A stretch of 45,453 nucleotides of DNA from sequence record OR911938.1; one strand, written 5' to 3'. Below are positions 6,200 through 44,060 of this stretch, one piece after another. This DNA comes from Escherichia phage vB_EcoS_SD276. A program made the position numbers and the translations under genes. The first letter of the stretch is position 1; each line of letters opens with the position of its first letter. The notes under the pieces are model-generated. The model had not been told where the DNA came from and did no database searches. It worked only from the letters and a program-made list of their open reading frames with translations.

Positions 6200-6234
6200 T
6201 TTGTCTTCCTTCATATCTCTGTTGGTGTGCAACC

Positions 6235-6264
6235 AATATACCGCAACCAACATTCGCAATGCAA
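6235..6264 (-). promoter_or_regulatory. sigma70-like promoter for antisense cassette (TTGCAT-N18-TATATT)
   Basis: Hexamers read on minus strand; followed by GGTTGCACACCAAC and RBS. Confidence 0.5.
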
Positions 6265-11077: not shown

Positions 11078-11107
11078 TTTGGTCGCTTAAATAGCGGGTG
11101 ATAATAT

Positions 11108-11131
11108 GGGGCCAGTACGGCCCCTTTTTTT
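11108..11131 (+). terminator. intrinsic terminator after major tail gene
   Basis: GGGGCC-AGTAC-GGCCCC followed by TTTTTTT. Confidence 0.7.
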
Positions 11132-12206: not shown

Positions 12207-14849
12207 ATGGCAGATCAGGCAGCGGGCATCACGCTAAAGGCGGACGTCGCGCAAATTAAAACGGCTAATACTGTGCTGGACACATTTGCGCAGAAATCCG
12301 AGAACACAGAACAGAAAGTAAAGAAATTAAACGACACCCTCGGCAAGTCGAAAAAGGTTACTGGCGACGCCGCGGGCGGAATGGAAAAGTTAGCGACTGA
12401 ATCGCAGCGTGCCGCCGATGGCATGACGAAACAGGAGCGACTCGCCAGCCGATTAGGCATGTCGACCAAAAACCTGGGATTCGCATCGCGGAACGCCGCA
12501 TTCCAGTTACAGGATATTGCGGTGACGCTTGAGATGGGTATGCCGGTGCACCGCGTTATGCTTCAGCAGTTACCGCAGCTTACTGGGGCGTTTGGCGGAC
12601 TGGGTAACACGCTGCGATATGTTGCGGGCTTTCTCGGCCCAGTGGGGATCGGCCTTTCGGCATTAACGGCGACGTTAGGCGTAGGGGTGGCAATTACGAC
12701 CCGCGCAGAGAACCAAGTGGCGGCGCTTAATAAGACGCTGGCGCTGTCCGGTAATATTTCAGGCCTCACAGCTAACCAGATCCTTGTGCTGTCCGAGAAC
12801 GCCGAGCGCATGGGCGGGTCATTTCGCAAGACGCGTGACACAATCCAGGCGCTGGCGGCGGCGGGGGTGAAAGCGGGTGGTGACTTCGGCGCATTGGCTA
12901 AGGTAGTTAATGACTTTGCGAAGGTGTCCAGCCAGCCGATCGAGGATGTGGTAGCGGCGGTAGCGAAGCTGTCAACCGACCCCGTTGGCGGACTGCGTGC
13001 GCTGGCGGATAAGTATCACGTCGTAAACGAAGCGCAGATCCAGCAGGTACAGTCGCTCGTTGATGCGGGTCGTGAGACAGACGCAGTTGCGTTGGCTAAC
13101 AAAACAGCCGCTGCGTCGTTCACCAGCATGACCAATGAGATCAAGGCGAACATGGGTACGCTTGAGCGATCTATGAACGTCGTCACATCGGCAGCCAAAT
13201 CAATGTGGGACGCCATCCTGGATGTGGGCCGCGCGCAGTCCTCCAATGAGTCCGAGATGAAAGCGCGCGAATCACTACAGCGCATGACCACGGCTTACTA
13301 TGCCGAGATGAAAGCGGTAAACGCTGCCGGTGGGGTAATGACTGAAGCGCAGAAAGCACGTATTAACATGCTTTACAGCGAACTGGTCGCCCAGGAAAAG
13401 GTAGTGGCGTCGCTCACCCTGCGTAACCGTGCCGAGCGAGACAACGCCCGCGCCGCAGACGAATCCGCAAAGGCGAACGAGGAGGCCAACCGCACCGCCC
13501 GCGACCGTGCCGCGTTTGAAAAGGAGTACGCAACTAACGCTAAGAAGCGCGCCGACGAGATCGCCCGCCTCAATTTGCTGAATAAGCGCGGCGTTATTGA
13601 TGAGAAAGAGCTTGCCGAGGCGGTGAAGCAGGTAAACGAGCGTTACAAAGACCCCGCACCGAAGAAGGCCGCCGCGGTACGAGTCGATGCCGGTATGAAA
13701 ATGCTGGAAGTCGCACGGAGCGAACTGGCCCAGCTTCGAGAATCCAGCAAGCAGATCGAAGCCAACGCATCTACGCAGACCCGCACGCAACGCGCTCAAG
13801 CGGCCTTAAACAAGCTGATCGCCGACAATGAGCAGTTAATCGCTGCGAGCAAAGAAAGAGCGCTAACGGCAGCAGAAAAGCAGCAGATGGTCGAATTCGG
13901 ACGCGTGAAGGAAGTGCGCGAGCAGATCGTCGAAGAAGCCAAATTGCTGGACGCGAAAGAGAAGCAGGTTAAGGCGCACGCGCAGATCGAGGCCTTCGTT
14001 AAGAACCAGAACGCCGAACTAAAAGCCACAGCCGCTGGCTATGCGCTTTCCACTCGCGAAGCGGCAAACCTGCGCGAAGAATTGCAGCTAATCGATCGTC
14101 TGAAGCGGGTTGGCGCTAACGATACCGATATTGGCAAGGCGGTGTCTAAGCTGCGGGAAGTGCAGGAGGCGCAGACCGGCGCTAACGCCTCGCTATGGGA
14201 TGGATTCAGTCGCGGGCTTAAGGATAGCGTGGATGAAATGGGTAACGGATATACGCAGATGGCGTCGCTCACGAAATTCACATTCAGCGCTATGCAAGAC
14301 ACGATGAACGAGTTTTTCGAGACTGGCAAGCTGAACGCAAAGGATATGGTTAAATCCATCCTAAGCGAGTTAATCAAGCTGGCTACCTCGCAGGCGTTCA
14401 AGTCGATCGTTAGCGCTTTCGGTGGTGACGGCGGCAAAAACGGATTGTTCGGCGCTATCTTCTCCGGCCTCACTAAGAATGCGGACGGCGGAGCGTACGC
14501 AGGAGGCAATCTCGCGGCCTATTCCGGTCAGGTAGTAAGCCAGCCCACCTTTTTCAGTTATGGCGTCCAGGCGTTCGCTAAGGGCGCAGGATTGATGGGT
14601 GAGGCTGGCCCCGAGGCCATCATGCCTCTGAAGCGCGGGCCGGACGGGAAACTGGGCGTTGCCGCTTCTGGCGCAGGCGGGGGTATGATCGTGACGACTA
14701 ACGTTTACACTGGGACCGGTAAAACAGACACCAGTGTGAGCGGCCCAGACCCACGCACCGCGCAGGCGTTCGGCAAGCAAATCACCGAGGCGGTGAAGGC
14801 CGAGATCGTGAAAGCGACGAAACCGGGTGGTGTACTTTACAAACGATGA
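12207..14849 (+). CDS. tail tape measure protein
   Basis: 880 aa, long Ala/Gln/Lys/Glu-rich helical protein with hydrophobic glycine-rich segments, downstream of G/GT. Confidence 0.85.
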   Translation: MADQAAGITLKADVAQIKTANTVLDTFAQKSENTEQKVKKLNDTLGKSKKVTGDAAGGMEKLATESQRAADGMTKQERLASRLGMSTKNLGFASRNAAFQLQDIAVTLEMGMPVHRVMLQQLPQLTGAFGGLGNTLRYVAGFLGPVGIGLSALTATLGVGVAITTRAENQVAALNKTLALSGNISGLTANQILVLSENAERMGGSFRKTRDTIQALAAAGVKAGGDFGALAKVVNDFAKVSSQPIEDVVAAVAKLSTDPVGGLRALADKYHVVNEAQIQQVQSLVDAGRETDAVALANKTAAASFTSMTNEIKANMGTLERSMNVVTSAAKSMWDAILDVGRAQSSNESEMKARESLQRMTTAYYAEMKAVNAAGGVMTEAQKARINMLYSELVAQEKVVASLTLRNRAERDNARAADESAKANEEANRTARDRAAFEKEYATNAKKRADEIARLNLLNKRGVIDEKELAEAVKQVNERYKDPAPKKAAAVRVDAGMKMLEVARSELAQLRESSKQIEANASTQTRTQRAQAALNKLIADNEQLIAASKERALTAAEKQQMVEFGRVKEVREQIVEEAKLLDAKEKQVKAHAQIEAFVKNQNAELKATAAGYALSTREAANLREELQLIDRLKRVGANDTDIGKAVSKLREVQEAQTGANASLWDGFSRGLKDSVDEMGNGYTQMASLTKFTFSAMQDTMNEFFETGKLNAKDMVKSILSELIKLATSQAFKSIVSAFGGDGGKNGLFGAIFSGLTKNADGGAYAGGNLAAYSGQVVSQPTFFSYGVQAFAKGAGLMGEAGPEAIMPLKRGPDGKLGVAASGAGGGMIVTTNVYTGTGKTDTSVSGPDPRTAQAFGKQITEAVKAEIVKATKPGGVLYKR

Positions 14850-14856
14850 TAAAATG

Positions 14857-14885
14857 GCCCTCACATTCATCGTGGGGGCTTTTTT
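14857..14885 (+). terminator. terminator-like hairpin after tape measure gene, abutting next start codon
   Basis: GCCCTCAC-loop-GTGGGGGC followed by TTTTTT then ATG. Confidence 0.5.
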
Positions 14886-15485
14886 ATGTCACAAGGTACG
14901 ATCACATTAACTAAGGGTAGTAAGACCGTTACAGGCGCGGGGACGGCGTTCCTTAGCGAGATCGGGAAGGTACTCGTATTCGCCCGCATCGACGGCAACG
15001 ACTACACCGGCAAAATTGCGGCGTTCAACTCGAACACGGTCATTACACTGAAAGATAACTGGGCCGGTCCAACGAAATCCGGGGCGGTATATGAGCTAAT
15101 CGAAGCGCACGACCCTCGATCAAACGAATGGCCCTATTACTGGCACATGCAATTGCAAGGCGGTGGAGACGTGCAGTTGGCTTTCCGGTCGGAGGAATTG
15201 CAATTCGGTAACGGTTACGGTCAGAACATCGCGGACGGCCCGAACGCCGAAACGAAACAATTTCCCGTGCAATTCGTCGGACTGACTACCGACAAGTGGT
15301 GTAATCCTAAACTGGTTTACAACTTCCTTCGCGGTCACTTCGTAAAACCGTTTGTCGTCACAGCACCGGATGGCGAAACAGGTTTATTCGTTGTCGAGCG
15401 TTCGAGCTTGTCGTACACGGACAACGGGCACTACACGGCAACGGTATCAGCCACCCTTAAAACAGCTATTGGATTCGTGAGATGA
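14886..15485 (+). CDS. minor tail protein (lambda M-like) with N-terminal fibre-like domain
   Basis: C-terminal half shows the FGxGYxQ pattern of M-type proteins; N-terminal ~50 aa resembles N-terminus of the lateral fibre ORF. Confidence 0.55.
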   Translation: MSQGTITLTKGSKTVTGAGTAFLSEIGKVLVFARIDGNDYTGKIAAFNSNTVITLKDNWAGPTKSGAVYELIEAHDPRSNEWPYYWHMQLQGGGDVQLAFRSEELQFGNGYGQNIADGPNAETKQFPVQFVGLTTDKWCNPKLVYNFLRGHFVKPFVVTAPDGETGLFVVERSSLSYTDNGHYTATVSATLKTAIGFVR

Positions 15486-26033: not shown

Positions 26034-26063
26034 ACTATAGTGCAACCAACCTATTGGTTGCAA
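26034..26063 (-). promoter_or_regulatory. sigma70-like promoter (TTGCAA-N18-TATAGT)
   Basis: Hexamers on minus strand, GGTTGC boxes in spacer, followed by leader hairpin. Confidence 0.5.
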
Positions 26064-27659: not shown

Positions 27660-27705
27660 CGTGTTGTCTCCAGGTATTAAAAAGGGCGTCCAACCGGACA
27701 CCCTA

Positions 27706-27734
27706 AATATAATGCAACCAATATGATTATGCAA
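27706..27734 (-). promoter_or_regulatory. sigma70-like promoter (TTGCAT-N17-TATATT)
   Basis: Hexamers on minus strand, TTGGTTGCAT repeated twice. Confidence 0.55.
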
Positions 27735-27739
27735 CCAAT

Positions 27740-30646: not shown

Positions 30647-30675
30647 ACTATACCGCTATGCGACCAATTCAGCAA
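30647..30675 (-). promoter_or_regulatory. sigma70-like promoter (TTGCTG-N17-TATAGT)
   Basis: Hexamers on minus strand upstream of zinc-ribbon gene. Confidence 0.45.
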
Positions 30676-30934
30676 CCAATAAATCACAGTCGGCAATGTT
30701 GTCTATAACGCGAACGTCAGCGCCGCGGCGGGCCATCCGCTCGTGTTCTCGTACCTGGTGCGGCTTAGGTTTGCCGCCTGGGCGCTTCACTTCGACGAAC
30801 ACTATTTTGCCGTTGATGATGATAATCAGATCGGGCGCACCCGAGCGCCCCTCCCATGCCACTTTGCGGCAGAATCCGCCGACGGCTTTCACCCGTCCCA
30901 TCAAGTGACTTTGAATCTTGCCTTCTGGTGTCAT
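30656..30934 (-). CDS. VRR-NUC domain nuclease
   Basis: Motif PDLIIIINGKIVFVEVKRPGGKPKPHQ (D...E-V-K...Q) typical of VRR-NUC; overlaps polymerase stop. Confidence 0.55.
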   Translation of the reverse strand: MTPEGKIQSHLMGRVKAVGGFCRKVAWEGRSGAPDLIIIINGKIVFVEVKRPGGKPKPHQVREHERMARRGADVRVIDNIADCDLLVAELVA

Positions 30935-34229: not shown

Positions 34230-34294
34230 TTTCCAATTCCTCATTTTCACATGTATCGGGGTTATTGTGAGCCACCCCGTTCGGCTTGGTTGCT

Positions 34295-34323
34295 AATCTA
34301 CTTGGTTGCGCCTAAGCGGTCAA
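34295..34323 (-). promoter_or_regulatory. sigma70-like promoter (TTGACC-N17-TAGATT)
   Basis: Hexamers on minus strand upstream of SSB-like gene, GCAACCAAG boxes. Confidence 0.5.
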
Positions 34324-37412: not shown

Positions 37413-37742
37413 ATGAATATCAAAGAAGCAATTGAAGTGTTATCTAATGCAATCCGCGGCGAAGCGGGTAAATCCTGGTATTACACAAATGCGGTGGATA
37501 CTCTGTTATTTGAAGTGTCCAGATTATCGCGTGCTGAGAAGGAGCTTACCGCGAAGCTGGAATTACTCAACGGCACGGCAGCAAGCAAGCTGCAAAAGCA
37601 CAATGAAGAAATGGAAGAATACAAAAAACAGGTTATCCGTTTGCGCGCCGAGGGCAAATCCTGGGCAATGATCGCTGAGTTGACAGGAATTAATCAGAGC
37701 ACCGTGCGCTCCTGGGTACGCAATAATAAAACTTCGAAGTAA
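37413..37742 (+). CDS. HTH DNA-binding protein, putative transcriptional regulator
   Basis: C-terminal helix-turn-helix-like segment GKSWAMIAELTGINQSTVRSWVRN; first gene after rightward promoter. Confidence 0.5.
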   Translation: MNIKEAIEVLSNAIRGEAGKSWYYTNAVDTLLFEVSRLSRAEKELTAKLELLNGTAASKLQKHNEEMEEYKKQVIRLRAEGKSWAMIAELTGINQSTVRSWVRNNKTSK

Positions 37743-40017: not shown

Positions 40018-40127
40018 AATTTGCGCGCATTGGTTGCCGATATGGGAATTCCCATATCGCTAAAAGACTAAAATTTGCGCGCATTGGTTGCCATTTTGAG
40101 TGTTTTTAGCTGGTCGCATTGGTTGCC
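40016..40127. repeat. GCATTGGTTGCC iteron-like direct repeats (3 copies) with inverted copy at 40398-40409
   Basis: AAAATTTGCGCGCATTGGTTGCC at 40016-40038 and 40070-40092, GCATTGGTTGCC at 40116-40127; flanks 20-bp perfect palindrome GATATGGGAATTCCCATATC (40039-40058). Confidence 0.6.
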
Positions 40128-40338: not shown

Positions 40339-40493
40339 AAATCCGGGATTGCAAAATACACGGCAGCACATTGGAAATCGCGGTCGTCGACGAACTAGGC
40401 AACCAATGCGAGATGCGGAATGGTGGGTGGAAAATGCAGTTTGCATTTGCAACGGATAGCGATCGACTTTTTCATACGCGTGATTAATATTGG

Positions 40494-40522
40494 TTGCATT
40501 CGTGCCCGCACCCTGCTAGATT
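40494..40522 (+). promoter_or_regulatory. sigma70-like promoter (TTGCAT-N17-TAGATT)
   Basis: Followed by GGTTGCACACCAAC, the same motif that follows the -10 of promoter 6235-6264. Confidence 0.5.
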
Positions 40523-40550
40523 GGTTGCACACCAACATGAGGACCGAACA

Positions 40551-41966: not shown

Positions 41967-42042
41967 TATGTGGCGGTAGTCTGGCGGCCCTGGTGCTGTT
42001 GGCGTCGGTTATTAGTCTGGTTAAATACCTATGGGGCAGATT

Positions 42043-42330
42043 ATGATTCATGATGTGATTTATTGGTTTGGTTTGATCTGCGGGTTGTGCCTGCTTACCG
42101 CGGTGTTGTTGGGCGTCCTGATGTTCGTAGTCTGGCCCGCCGTGGAAGCCGCCAGCATTACCCGCATGACGTTCGAGGTATACAAGCGCCGTGGAATCAC
42201 GGAGCACCCGACCAGGTTGCGCATGTGGTGGCTGTGGTATCGGGATATGATAGGCGGGCGAACATTCGAGGCCGTCAGGTCGAGTGGATGGGAGTGGAAA
42301 GGCGTCGGCAAGTGGTCCATTTTCGATTAA
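42043..42330 (+). CDS. membrane protein (alternative start 42031)
   Basis: N-terminal hydrophobic helices WFGLICGLCLLTAVLLGVLMFVVW. Confidence 0.4.
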   Translation: MIHDVIYWFGLICGLCLLTAVLLGVLMFVVWPAVEAASITRMTFEVYKRRGITEHPTRLRMWWLWYRDMIGGRTFEAVRSSGWEWKGVGKWSIFD

Positions 42331-42347
42331 TTATGCAAGCGTGATAT

Positions 42348-42382
42348 AGTCCCAGTGAGCTAAAACTTACTGGGACTTTTTT
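42348..42382 (+). terminator. terminator-like hairpin immediately upstream of holin-like gene
   Basis: AGTCCCAGT-12 nt loop-ACTGGGACT followed by TTTTTT then ATG. Confidence 0.5.
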
Positions 42383-42673
42383 ATGGATAAGCTAAACGAG
42401 TGGCTATTCGCCCTGGCATGTCTGGCGGGTGGCTTCGTAGGCGCACGCATTCATGGCGAGGCCACGAAAGGGCCACTAAACTTCGTTTTGTATGTTGTAG
42501 TTGGCTTCCTGTGTGCCATATTTGGCGCACCGGCTATTGCCGAGTGGGCTGGTTTGTCGGGCGAGCGCACTGTCGCCGGTTTAGGCTTCGTAACCGCAAT
42601 CTTCTGGATGCCAATCGCCGACCGGATCCGGGAGACTATTGCGTCGTTCCGACTTCCGGGGGGTGCAAAATGA
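42383..42673 (+). CDS. holin-like membrane protein
   Basis: 96 aa with three predicted hydrophobic segments, immediately upstream of lysozyme gene. Confidence 0.5.
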   Translation: MDKLNEWLFALACLAGGFVGARIHGEATKGPLNFVLYVVVGFLCAIFGAPAIAEWAGLSGERTVAGLGFVTAIFWMPIADRIRETIASFRLPGGAK

Positions 42674-42915
42674 TTATCTCCGTCCTGTTGTTTGTTATCA
42701 TAGGGGCTTCGTCCCTGTTTAACGTGTATGCGCCGTCCGTCCAGGATGGCATTTTCGGTCGGGTGCTGTATCTGTTAACGGCAATGGTCTGTATTATCGG
42801 ATTGTTGCAAACAGGAGACGTATCTGATACCACCTGGACCGCGTTAATCTGGCTGTTTGCATTGCGCACACTGCGTAATGCTGTTTTGAATGGGGTAAAA
42901 CATGCGATTCAGTGA
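42670..42915 (+). CDS. second small membrane protein (holin/antiholin candidate)
   Basis: 81 aa, hydrophobic segments; overlaps both neighbours. Confidence 0.4.
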   Translation: MIISVLLFVIIGASSLFNVYAPSVQDGIFGRVLYLLTAMVCIIGLLQTGDVSDTTWTALIWLFALRTLRNAVLNGVKHAIQ

Positions 42916-43393
42916 CAACGGTCTACGATTTACGGCAGCATGGGAGGCTTTCAGCCCGGTGCCGTATTTCGCGACCAAGAAAGAGCAGGCCCGCGGCCTG
43001 TACACCTGGGGTTATGGTCATACCGGCACTAACCCGCCGCGAAGCATTACCCGAGCGGAAGCGCTGGATCTGCTTAAGCGCGATGTGGCGTACGCTGAGG
43101 ACTGGGTGAACAAATACGCACATCCGAGCATTAACCAGGCGCAATTCGACGCGCTGGTGGACCTGGTAATCAACGCCGGTCCTGGTCCGATCGTACCGGA
43201 TGACGTCGCGAATGATTTCGATGATGCGGTGCGACTGGGCGACTGGGCGAAGGTCCGGGCTATACTGCCGCAGTTCCGCAAGCAAGGCGGGTCGGTGCTC
43301 TTAGGTCTGGTACGTCGCGCAATCGGCAGACAGGCGCTATTCGATGGTAAGCAGTGGGACGTTGCCGAGAAAATCGGGCGTAACGCAGCATAA
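42902..43393 (+). CDS. endolysin, lysozyme-like (GH24-type)
   Basis: N-terminal catalytic region with WEAF...YTWGYGHTG resembling phage lysozymes. Confidence 0.65.
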   Translation: MRFSDNGLRFTAAWEAFSPVPYFATKKEQARGLYTWGYGHTGTNPPRSITRAEALDLLKRDVAYAEDWVNKYAHPSINQAQFDALVDLVINAGPGPIVPDDVANDFDDAVRLGDWAKVRAILPQFRKQGGSVLLGLVRRAIGRQALFDGKQWDVAEKIGRNAA

Positions 43394-43409: not shown

Positions 43410-43823
43410 ATGTTAAAAAGCATTCTTGATCATAACGCTGACGCGCTCGCCGCGCTGGCTAAAACCGAAGACCCTGGCGCACGCGCTATCATCGCGGACA
43501 CTATCAGCCATGCAGGCGTCTTTGACGCGAAGCTGCCGAGTGTGCCGGAAAGTAAGCCGGTGGCAAGTGCGACCGTAACCATCACCCCAGTGTCAGCCGC
43601 AGTTGGTGCGAAGGCCGCCGCTTCAGTTGCCGTCCTGCCATCCGACGCAACTAACAAGGCTGGGTCGTGGGTGTCTGCAAACCCTGACTGCGCGGCAATC
43701 GATCAGGCTACCGGCGAAATCACAGCAAAATCGGAGGGTAGCGTCCACATCTTTTGGGTGGCGTCCGATGGAGGCGGGGCGCTGGCGTCCGCCATCTTCA
43801 CCGTAACGGGAGCCGCGGAATAA
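43410..43823 (+). CDS. hypothetical protein with bacterial Ig-like (Big_2-like) C-terminal domain
   Basis: Pattern VTITPVSAAV...AIDQATGEITAKSEGSVHIFW typical of Ig-like domains. Confidence 0.45.
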   Translation: MLKSILDHNADALAALAKTEDPGARAIIADTISHAGVFDAKLPSVPESKPVASATVTITPVSAAVGAKAAASVAVLPSDATNKAGSWVSANPDCAAIDQATGEITAKSEGSVHIFWVASDGGGALASAIFTVTGAAE

Positions 43824-43859: not shown

Positions 43860-43889
43860 TTGACTTGCAACCAACATAGACGCCATACT
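43860..43889 (+). promoter_or_regulatory. possible promoter (TTGACT-N18-CATACT)
   Basis: Weak -10; lies after terminator 43831-43857 and before phosphoesterase gene. Confidence 0.3.
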
Positions 43890-44060
43890 GCGACCAACCA
43901 AGAAGAGGAGTAATCAAGATGGCACGTAAAGACGTTTGGGTATTGGCAATCTGGACCGCCGCGGCTTTTATCGGCATGGTTATTTGCGAATTGAGATAGC
44001 CCGCCGCCATATGGACCGTGGTATATTGTCCACGGTCCAATAATCAGGAAGTAATTAAAT

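Follow-up and report, generated by a model that had tools for sequence, protein, structure and literature searches.

Gene organization around the two hairpins

The window, meaning here the whole analysed stretch of 45,453 nucleotides from Escherichia phage vB_EcoS_SD276 (OR911938.1), is a complete or nearly complete 45.4-kb genome of a Dhillonvirus (HK578/JL1/EP23-like virulent E. coli siphovirus) and is about 95% identical, over the regions tested, to phages B2, PC2, JL1 and Oekolampad. Its gene map was obtained by projecting the curated annotation of Oekolampad onto it with tblastn. Structural genes are read rightward from 77 to about 24 kb, and between about 37.2 and 24.8 kb the replication genes are read leftward. 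From 37.4 kb, rightward genes resume with an HTH protein, a helicase and small ORFs; downstream of this second rightward block come two holin genes and an endolysin gene (42383-43393), then an Ig-domain ORF, an exonuclease gene and finally a 70-aa ORF. The right end continues directly into the terminase genes in permuted relatives.

Two hairpins in this map are followed by T-runs that abut a start codon, one ahead of the first holin gene (site 1) and the other between the tape measure gene and a minor tail protein gene (site 2). The features at site 1 are:

42031-42330, + strand: 99-aa ORF of unknown function (phrog_2531), the final gene of the rightward helicase/small-ORF block; TAA stop at 42328-42330
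42340-42344, + strand: CGTGA, 5' strand of a weak outer helix; its partner, UUAUG at 42381-42385, includes the holin start codon
42342-42350, + strand: TGATATAGT, candidate extended -10-like box (TGnTATAAT), adjoining and overlapping the 5' arm
42348-42377, + strand: terminator hairpin with a 12-bp stem and a 6-nt loop, -19.8 kcal/mol
42348-42359, + strand: 5' arm, AGTCCCAGTGAG
42360-42365, + strand: loop, CTAAAA
42366-42377, + strand: 3' arm, CTTACTGGGACT
42372-42375, + strand: GGGA, weak Shine-Dalgarno (SD)-like element inside the 3' arm, 7 nt before the ATG
42377-42382, + strand: T6 run, serving as terminator U-tract and SD-to-AUG spacer; holin ATG at 42383
42383-42673, + strand: holin gene (96 aa, phrog_2359)
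42670-42915, + strand: second holin gene (phrog_2508), with a strong G-run SD and an ATGA overlap
42902-43393, + strand: endolysin gene (Phage_lysozyme)

Those at site 2 are:

12207-14849, + strand: tail tape measure gene; stop TGA at 14847-14849, then TAA
14847-14855, + strand: TGATAAAAT, double stop TGA TAA plus an A-tract pairing with the U-run; the weaker promoter candidate
14856-14880, + strand: terminator hairpin with a 9-bp stem and a 7-nt loop, -15.5 kcal/mol
14856-14864, + strand: 5' arm, GGCCCTCAC
Between the arms, + strand: loop, ATTCATC
14872-14880, + strand: 3' arm, GTGGGGGCT
14874-14878, + strand: GGGGG, SD-like run inside the 3' arm, 7 nt before the ATG
14880-14885, + strand: T6 run, serving as U-tract and SD-to-AUG spacer; M-like ATG at 14886
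14886-15485, + strand: minor tail protein gene (199 aa), with a Phage_min_tail (lambda M-like) domain at residues 86-187

The intergenic gaps measure 52 nt at site 1 and 36 nt at site 2. The minor tail protein begins with a 70-aa N-terminal domain common to tail-fibre N-termini, and the 199-aa protein is detected by proteomics of the Dhillonvirus EE09 (PMC10673088).

The preliminary description of this DNA had placed a hairpin with a T-run ending one base before an ATG at both 42383 and 14886, and folding confirmed the arrangement at each. The site 1 stem consists of 12 pairs, of which six are G-C and one is G-U, and its fold has a z-score of -7.7; the site 2 stem consists of nine pairs, six of them G-C, with a z-score of -4.4. 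At neither site did any of 200 shuffled sequences fold equally well. Inclusion of the outer helices brings the folds to -24.8 kcal/mol at site 1 and -18.0 kcal/mol at site 2, where UAAAA pairs with UUUUA and the helix reaches the start codon. The sequences of the two hairpins are unrelated, and a shared repeat family was accordingly rejected. A terminator role on the minus strand was also rejected: no leftward gene lies near either hairpin, site 1 is without a minus-strand T-run, and site 2 offers only ATTTTAT there.

Both hairpins have the anatomy of intrinsic terminators

Intrinsic (Rho-independent) terminators were recognized by a GC-rich stem of about 5-14 bp, a loop of 3-8 nt and a U run of at least 5-6 right after the stem, together with a position past a stop codon, in an intergenic gap and on the transcribed strand. 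Both hairpins show these stem, loop, U-run and position features. The stem starts 17 nt past the stop at 42330 in site 1 and 6 nt past the stop at 14849 in site 2, and all flanking genes are on the plus strand. The d-score is positive at both sites (19.1 and 24.0), as it is at the other terminators of the window. The earlier view that these elements act in some way "rather than" by simple termination is unjustified: both display every sequence feature of an intrinsic terminator.

Eleven strong hairpins with a T-run occur on the transcribed strand of the genome, and nine of them are intra-operon:

8275: after the major capsid gene
11108: after the major tail gene
14856: after the tape-measure gene
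42348: before the holin gene
43830: after the Ig-domain ORF
Four further sites: in the leftward replication operon

The distances from the end of the stem to the next start codon in these nine are 5, 6, 12, 19, 20, 20, 23, 23 and 209 nt. The two sites discussed here are the most closely packed (5 and 6 nt), and the distances across all nine show that they represent the tight end of a continuum. The other seven have a normal SD (TAGGAG, TGGAG, AGAGGA and others) between the T-run and the ATG. Sites 1 and 2 thus resemble the intra-operon intrinsic terminators of phages in their GC-rich stem, short loop, U-tract of six and position just past a stop codon, but differ in where the ribosome site falls: usually the SD follows the U-tract, whereas here the U-tract ends at -1 and the SD-like run lies in the descending arm.

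An Rfam search with the two hairpins returned no family at its gathering score. The sub-threshold matches to Thr_leader (28 bits, against a threshold of 55) and NsiR1 (29 against 39) reflect generic terminator shape alone. A literature search found no 3'-end, 5'-end or transcription map of a Dhillonvirus, and the one "transcriptome" paper that it returned reports no phage transcripts.

Start codons and computed burial of the ribosome-binding sites

It had been suggested that the arrangement would dissolve if the two genes started further downstream. Both ATGs are upheld by upstream stops, by annotation and by conserved N-termini. The holin ATG at 42383 is the first possible start after an in-frame TGA at 42356-58, and the M-like ATG at 14886 is the first after an in-frame TAA at 14850-52. 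In the holin gene, the next in-frame ATG, GTG or TTG lies about 35 codons downstream. The same two ATGs were annotated independently in phages Oekolampad, JL1, rolling and Zar3M, and, in alignment, the MDK... N-terminus of the holin falls on the single start of its Kagunavirus homologue. Mis-called starts were rejected on these grounds (in-frame stops just upstream, no nearby alternatives and conserved N-termini), and are further ruled out by diverged relatives in which the ATG also stands directly behind the T-run.

The statement that the hairpins leave no spacer for a Shine-Dalgarno sequence proved wrong. At both sites the 3' arm contains an SD-like G-run that ends 7 nt ahead of the ATG, with the T-run itself as the spacer. 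Pairing with the anti-SD was scored for 62 mapped genes, with a median of -6.0 kcal/mol. The GGGGG run of the M-like gene forms a duplex of -8.4 kcal/mol, stronger than the genome median, while the GGGA element of the holin gene (-3.9 kcal/mol) falls in the weakest quarter. G-run SDs are common in this phage and precede at least five other genes (4625, 6354, 8817, 12207 and 42670). An SD located upstream of the hairpin and brought to the AUG by the stem, in the style of T4 genes 25 and 38, was discarded, as no purine-rich run lies 5' of either stem.

On read-through RNA, these SD-like runs are computed to be among the least accessible in the genome. To open the region from -14 to -5, the M-like gene requires 17.6 kcal/mol and the holin gene 13.1 kcal/mol, against a median of 4.0, which places them first and second among the 62 genes; for the whole -18 to +13 region they rank first and third. 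In the holin AUG-proximal region (-4 to +13), the cost equals the genome median (4.8 vs 4.8 kcal/mol). A ribosome reaches about +11 to +13 from its P site. The possibility that a ribosome at the tape-measure stop melts the site 2 stem was judged unlikely, the stop being 6 nt away, from where it would touch only the first pair.

Conservation within Dhillonvirus and in Kagunavirus

Conservation of both hairpins extends to every Dhillonvirus examined. For site 1, the comparison covered 51 loci in GenBank, IMG/VR and metagenomes, which represent 30 distinct Dhillonvirus sequences; phage Oekolampad (Bas18) is identical to the window at this site. All 30 agree in the T-run, in the 5' flank GCGTGATAT and in CGTGA (42340-42344), and all but the two of the LM40P1 lineage agree in the stem. 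The loop and the codons nearby differ from one sequence to another. The loop of site 2 is likewise free to vary, and substitutions in its stem preserve pairing (U-G, C-G, U-A), the only exception being a single terminal pair in two phages. The T-run of relatives comprises 5-7 T. In four relatives the site 2 T-run is broken by C (TTTTCT, TCTTCT) and the hairpin persists; where this tract is interrupted, the hairpin may outweigh termination in importance.

Within the genus, no pair was found to have changed on both sides, and scans of metagenomes and IMG/VR for covariation yielded only near-identical Dhillonvirus and Kagunavirus copies. What suggests selection on the structure is the contrast between stem and loop, together with two diverged lineages. 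The LM40P1-type holin is 71% identical and begins MEVFHKL...; in its stem a C-G pair replaces a U-A pair of the window, and the ATG is still right behind T6. The M-like protein of the IMG/VR contig L039 is 52% identical and is without the entire N-terminal domain; its stem differs in sequence (AACCCCC/GGGGGTT), and the order of TGA-TAA, hairpin, T6 and ATG is unchanged. Since both the stems and the N-termini have diverged with the ATG still behind T6, the juxtaposition itself is maintained, beyond mere inheritance. The LM40P1 lineage also has SD-like runs with better anti-SD complementarity, namely GGGG before the holin gene and GAGGG before the tail gene. The hairpin at the tape-measure junction is absent in contig L040 and in Kagunavirus K1G.

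Kagunaviruses (K1G, RP180, LSPA1) carry a homologue of the holin with 46% identity, which likewise precedes a second holin and the endolysin. Its leader contains a conserved hairpin, ATCCUCCAG...CUGGAGGAU, whose 3' arm holds the SD 6 nt before the start, and in an LSPA1-like variant the stem is lengthened to 13 bp. The Kagunavirus leader differs from site 1 in its canonical GGAGGA SD, TTG start and long loop and in having no U-tract, so that its hairpin is a pure translational sequester and no terminator. Kagunaviruses also have no terminator between the tape-measure gene and the next gene. Structure-limited initiation is supported as a selected property by the fact that, in two genera, different hairpins cover the ribosome site of this one holin. 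The suggestion of structure-dependent translation initiation made in the preliminary description is thus a reasonable reading, chiefly for the holin gene, given the computed burial of its SD and the Kagunavirus hairpin.

Probable terminators compressed onto the next ribosome-binding site

We consider it probable, with moderate confidence, that both elements are ordinary intrinsic terminators that have been compressed onto the next ribosome site and probably limit the translation of read-through RNA. Each part of the element would do double duty, with the G-rich descending arm acting as terminator and as the SD-like sequence of the next gene, and the U-tract acting as terminator tract and as the 7-nt spacer to the AUG. 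From the terminator anatomy, we infer that a sizeable fraction of polymerases would stop at both hairpins. The stop at 42348 would close the rightward helicase/small-ORF unit ahead of the lysis cassette, and the stop at 14856 would lower transcription of the tail-tip genes relative to the upstream tail genes. RNA from polymerases that pass would refold the hairpin, locking the SD in a stem of -15 to -20 kcal/mol and the AUG in a weak outer helix, and the holin and the M-like protein would then be poorly translated from it. Low translation would suit both a dose-sensitive lysis timer, such as the holin, and a low-copy tail-tip protein, such as the M-like protein. Residual initiation may proceed through breathing of the hairpin, through the single-stranded U-rich tract, or through both. 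Holin output could be too low if it came solely from read-through of a strong terminator and a weak, buried SD, which hints at a second route, a promoter.

A possible promoter inside the hairpin

Such a promoter is the core of the alternative that survives best, which we regard as unlikely overall though deserving real weight. By the logic of T4 gene e, a promoter would lie within the hairpin and the holin would be gated by the origin of the transcript. RNA from upstream promoters would be terminated or have its ribosome site buried, whereas RNA from the hairpin promoter would be without the 5' arm, escape termination and leave the ribosome site open. The candidate promoter at TGATATAGT has a predicted start near 42357, inside the 5' arm. 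TGATAAAAT at 14847-14855 also matches an extended -10 box, with a candidate start about 7 nt downstream, again inside the 5' arm. In RNA begun at 42357 or 14862, the computed cost of opening the SD falls from 13.1 to 1.9 and from 17.6 to 5.0 kcal/mol, respectively. Moreover, the terminator and the holin ATG leave no space between them for any other promoter.

The motif TGNTATANT occurs only three times in 45 kb, and two of the three copies are intergenic, on the plus strand and just before a gene (42342 and 44019); the -10 motif was picked after the sites had been seen, which biases the enrichment computed for it. The -10-like boxes beside both stems do not vary. With an approximate sigma-70 matrix, the two sites rank 34th and 71st of 90,796 positions, but many matches of equal score fall inside genes. 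Two other terminators have better-defined promoter sequences in the same position. TTGGTC-17-TGnTAATAT at 11078-11107 lies directly 5' of the stem at 11108, and phages differ there in the free "n" alone. On the minus strand, TTGCAT-17-TATATT lies directly 5' of the stem at 27704, with conserved hexamers and a variable spacer. The hairpin that sequesters the SD in Kagunaviruses shares part of its 5' arm with TG[G/C]TATCCT, in which the "n" alone varies.

Several observations weigh against promoters at sites 1 and 2. AT-rich 5' flanks are usual at terminators, where an A-tract matches the U-tract, and the TGATAA of site 2 is simply two stop codons. A conserved -35 element is found at neither site, and the recurrent promoter/operator motif TTGGTTGCA, which marks the well-conserved promoters of this phage, is absent from both. 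The outer helix involving the AUG would account equally well for the constancy of CGTGA.

The precedent for this alternative is phage T4, in which genes e, soc, 49 and I-TevI have hairpins that sequester the ribosome-binding site and carry a late promoter in the 5' arm (PMC3014915, PMC2988022). The likeness to gene e is that the SD and AUG of a lysis gene are enclosed in a stable helix on upstream RNA, that the DNA encoding the 5' arm has a -10-like box, and that the computed opening cost collapses if RNA starts there. The T4 hairpins, however, are not terminators, and the T4 late promoters (TATAAATA, gp55-dependent) have been mapped, whereas at the Dhillonvirus sites the hairpin doubles as a canonical terminator, the promoter is a sequence match alone and no phage sigma factor is known.

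A wider form of the promoter reading is more tentative still: Dhillonviruses and, in related form, Kagunaviruses may use overlapping terminator-promoter modules in which a -10 box adjoins the ascending arm. Equally doubtful is the function that such modules might have, in which the hairpin would insulate a transcription unit and silence the downstream ribosome site, and the embedded promoter would yield a transcript that is termination-proof and translatable. On this speculative view, the arrangement would recur at no fewer than four sites (11099/11108, 14847/14856, 27711/27704 and 42342/42348).

Less likely alternatives: pure compaction and regulated read-through

An improbable alternative is pure compaction, in which the hairpins would only terminate transcription and stabilise upstream 3' ends and downstream translation would be normal. 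Initiation might then need nothing beyond an open U-rich tract and an AUG (protein S1, A/U-rich leader), or ribosomes from the upstream ORF might re-initiate. The unremarkable structure of the holin -4 to +13 region fits this view, as does the ready detection of the 199-aa tail protein in virions or infected cells, and the seven other terminators with a normal SD after the T-run indicate that termination alone explains the existence of such hairpins. Against it, the SD-like runs stand at the optimal 7-nt spacing and improve in the LM40P1 lineage, which suggests that they are used, and the Kagunavirus homologue buries a perfect SD without a terminator. Re-initiation is further opposed by the upstream stops, which are 52 and 36 nt away and behind a stable hairpin.

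Regulated read-through, which the preliminary description had also proposed, is highly improbable. A Q- or N-type antitermination factor, or attenuation, would open the terminators late and so switch on the lysis and tail-tip genes. The layout does recall lambda pR'-tR'-S: on the circularised genome, the terminase and structural genes come right after the lysis cassette, and a strong terminator stands directly ahead of that cassette. Nevertheless, no Q-, N- or other antiterminator-like domain was found with Pfam and PHROGs in nine rightward ORFs, a weak negative because most of these ORFs are of unknown function. As long as transcription has yet to reach the 3' arm, UGGGA at 42287-42291 is a potential partner of the 5' arm, but this alternative UGGGA/UCCCA helix has only 5 bp and cannot compete with the 12-bp stem; moreover, it sits in translated sequence encoding a conserved GWEWKG motif. 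A leader peptide and a known riboswitch are likewise absent. With no antiterminator protein, no convincing alternative structure and no Rfam family at gathering score, the claim is not supported.

Comparison with lambda S and implications

In phage lambda, the sdi structure of the holin gene S selects between two starts (Met1-Lys2-Met3), giving rise to antiholin and holin. Like the sdi stem, the hairpin at site 1 is an RNA stem-loop that covers part of the ribosome-binding site at the start of a holin gene and could set the level of initiation. The dual start of lambda S is absent, however: the holin examined here has a single ATG (MDKLNEW...) and no second start nearby.

The principle of a terminator or a hairpin sequestering the ribosome-binding site ahead of a lysis gene is already known, and the gain is incremental. 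For genome annotation, start codons that lie behind a T-run without a visible SD should not be "corrected". For the engineering of Dhillonviruses (BASEL Bas15-18-type) or the reuse of their terminators, it should be considered that these terminators carry the ribosome-binding site of the next gene. Site 1 is chiefly of value because it offers a clean test of whether a promoter within a terminator can gate a holin. Were the terminator-promoter module to prove true, the holin would be under a lysis switch set by transcript origin, in which a bona fide intrinsic terminator is joined to the principle known from T4 gene e. If instead the favoured reading of a terminator compressed onto the ribosome site is right, the holin hairpin would be a double lock, which halts most transcription from the helicase/small-ORF block and buries the ribosome site on the RNA that passes, and it would help to explain how premature lysis is avoided in a virulent siphovirus without a recognisable late regulator.

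Promoter-like elements beside terminator hairpins

Two sigma-70-like promoters adjoin terminator stems in the window:

11078-11131, plus strand, TTGGTC-17-TGaTAATAT, adjoining stem 11108 (after the major tail gene)
27740-27680, minus strand, TTGCAT-17-TATATT, adjoining stem 27704

Each lies immediately 5' of its stem and is predicted to start transcription within the hairpin. The hexamers are kept in the Dhillonvirus relatives Oekolampad, rolling and LM40P1, among which changes are confined to the spacer or the free 'n'.

Gene starts and protein variants

The gene corresponding to Oekolampad bas18_0038 (start region 30405-30397, minus strand) also begins close to a terminator: its SD-like GGGGG(C) comes after a T-run and is separated from the annotated ATG by 1 nt. 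Because another ATG, two codons further 3' (ATGACGATG), has the proper spacing to the SD, the true start probably lies two codons after the annotated one.

The second holin gene (42670-42915) overlaps the first through ATGA. Its SD, GGGGGG, is among the strongest in the genome (-10.7 kcal/mol), yet its opening cost of 9.2 kcal/mol is the third-highest; together with the overlap, this suggests that the second holin is translationally coupled to the first. Another ORF in this part of the window is followed by a terminator and then a promoter:

43410-43823, 137-aa product with a Big_2 Ig-like domain

Residues 1-48 match a 55-aa Oekolampad protein (phrog_11068), and the remainder constitutes the Big_2 domain. 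Proteomics of the Dhillonvirus EE09 detected a hypothetical protein of 137 aa (13.6 kDa), and the long form is therefore a real variant.

The N-terminal domain of the M-like tail protein (70 aa, 14886-15100) is also found N-terminally in the tail-fibre proteins phrog_1980, phrog_28473 and phrog_2712. A 52% identical homologue in the IMG/VR contig L039 (1324-1701) has none of this domain.

Doubtful database records

Three GenBank records (OQ221563.1, MG065648.1 and PQ843332.1) raise questions of labelling or assembly. Those titled 'Acinetobacter phage NJ01' and 'Campylobacter phage A144' share 94-99% identity with the E. coli Dhillonvirus of the window, so that these host labels are probably wrong or due to contamination. 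The 88.6-kb P-GXEC-L2P5 record contains the region twice and in pieces, suggesting an assembly artefact.

A recurrent promoter- or operator-like motif

The motif TTGGTTGCA is enriched in the window, with 25 matches at up to one mismatch (11.9 expected); none of 100 shuffles reached 25. Most often it is found as pairs within intergenic promoter regions, and it overlaps -35-like TTGCAT boxes:

6228-6250, 22336, 26041-26062, 27713-27738 and 30659-30679, sites up to 30679
34286-34310, 37218, 40030-40127, 40490-40529 and 43866-43897, sites from 34286 onward

The rightward block opens with a possible regulatory gene:

37413-37739, plus strand, 109-aa protein with HTH_23 and Sigma70_r4_2

Both Pfam matches exceed their cut-offs, and the product is a candidate transcription regulator. 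GenBank labels for its relatives differ (transposase or Gam-like protein). TTGGTTGCA probably represents an early/middle-gene promoter or operator consensus, to which this HTH protein perhaps binds.
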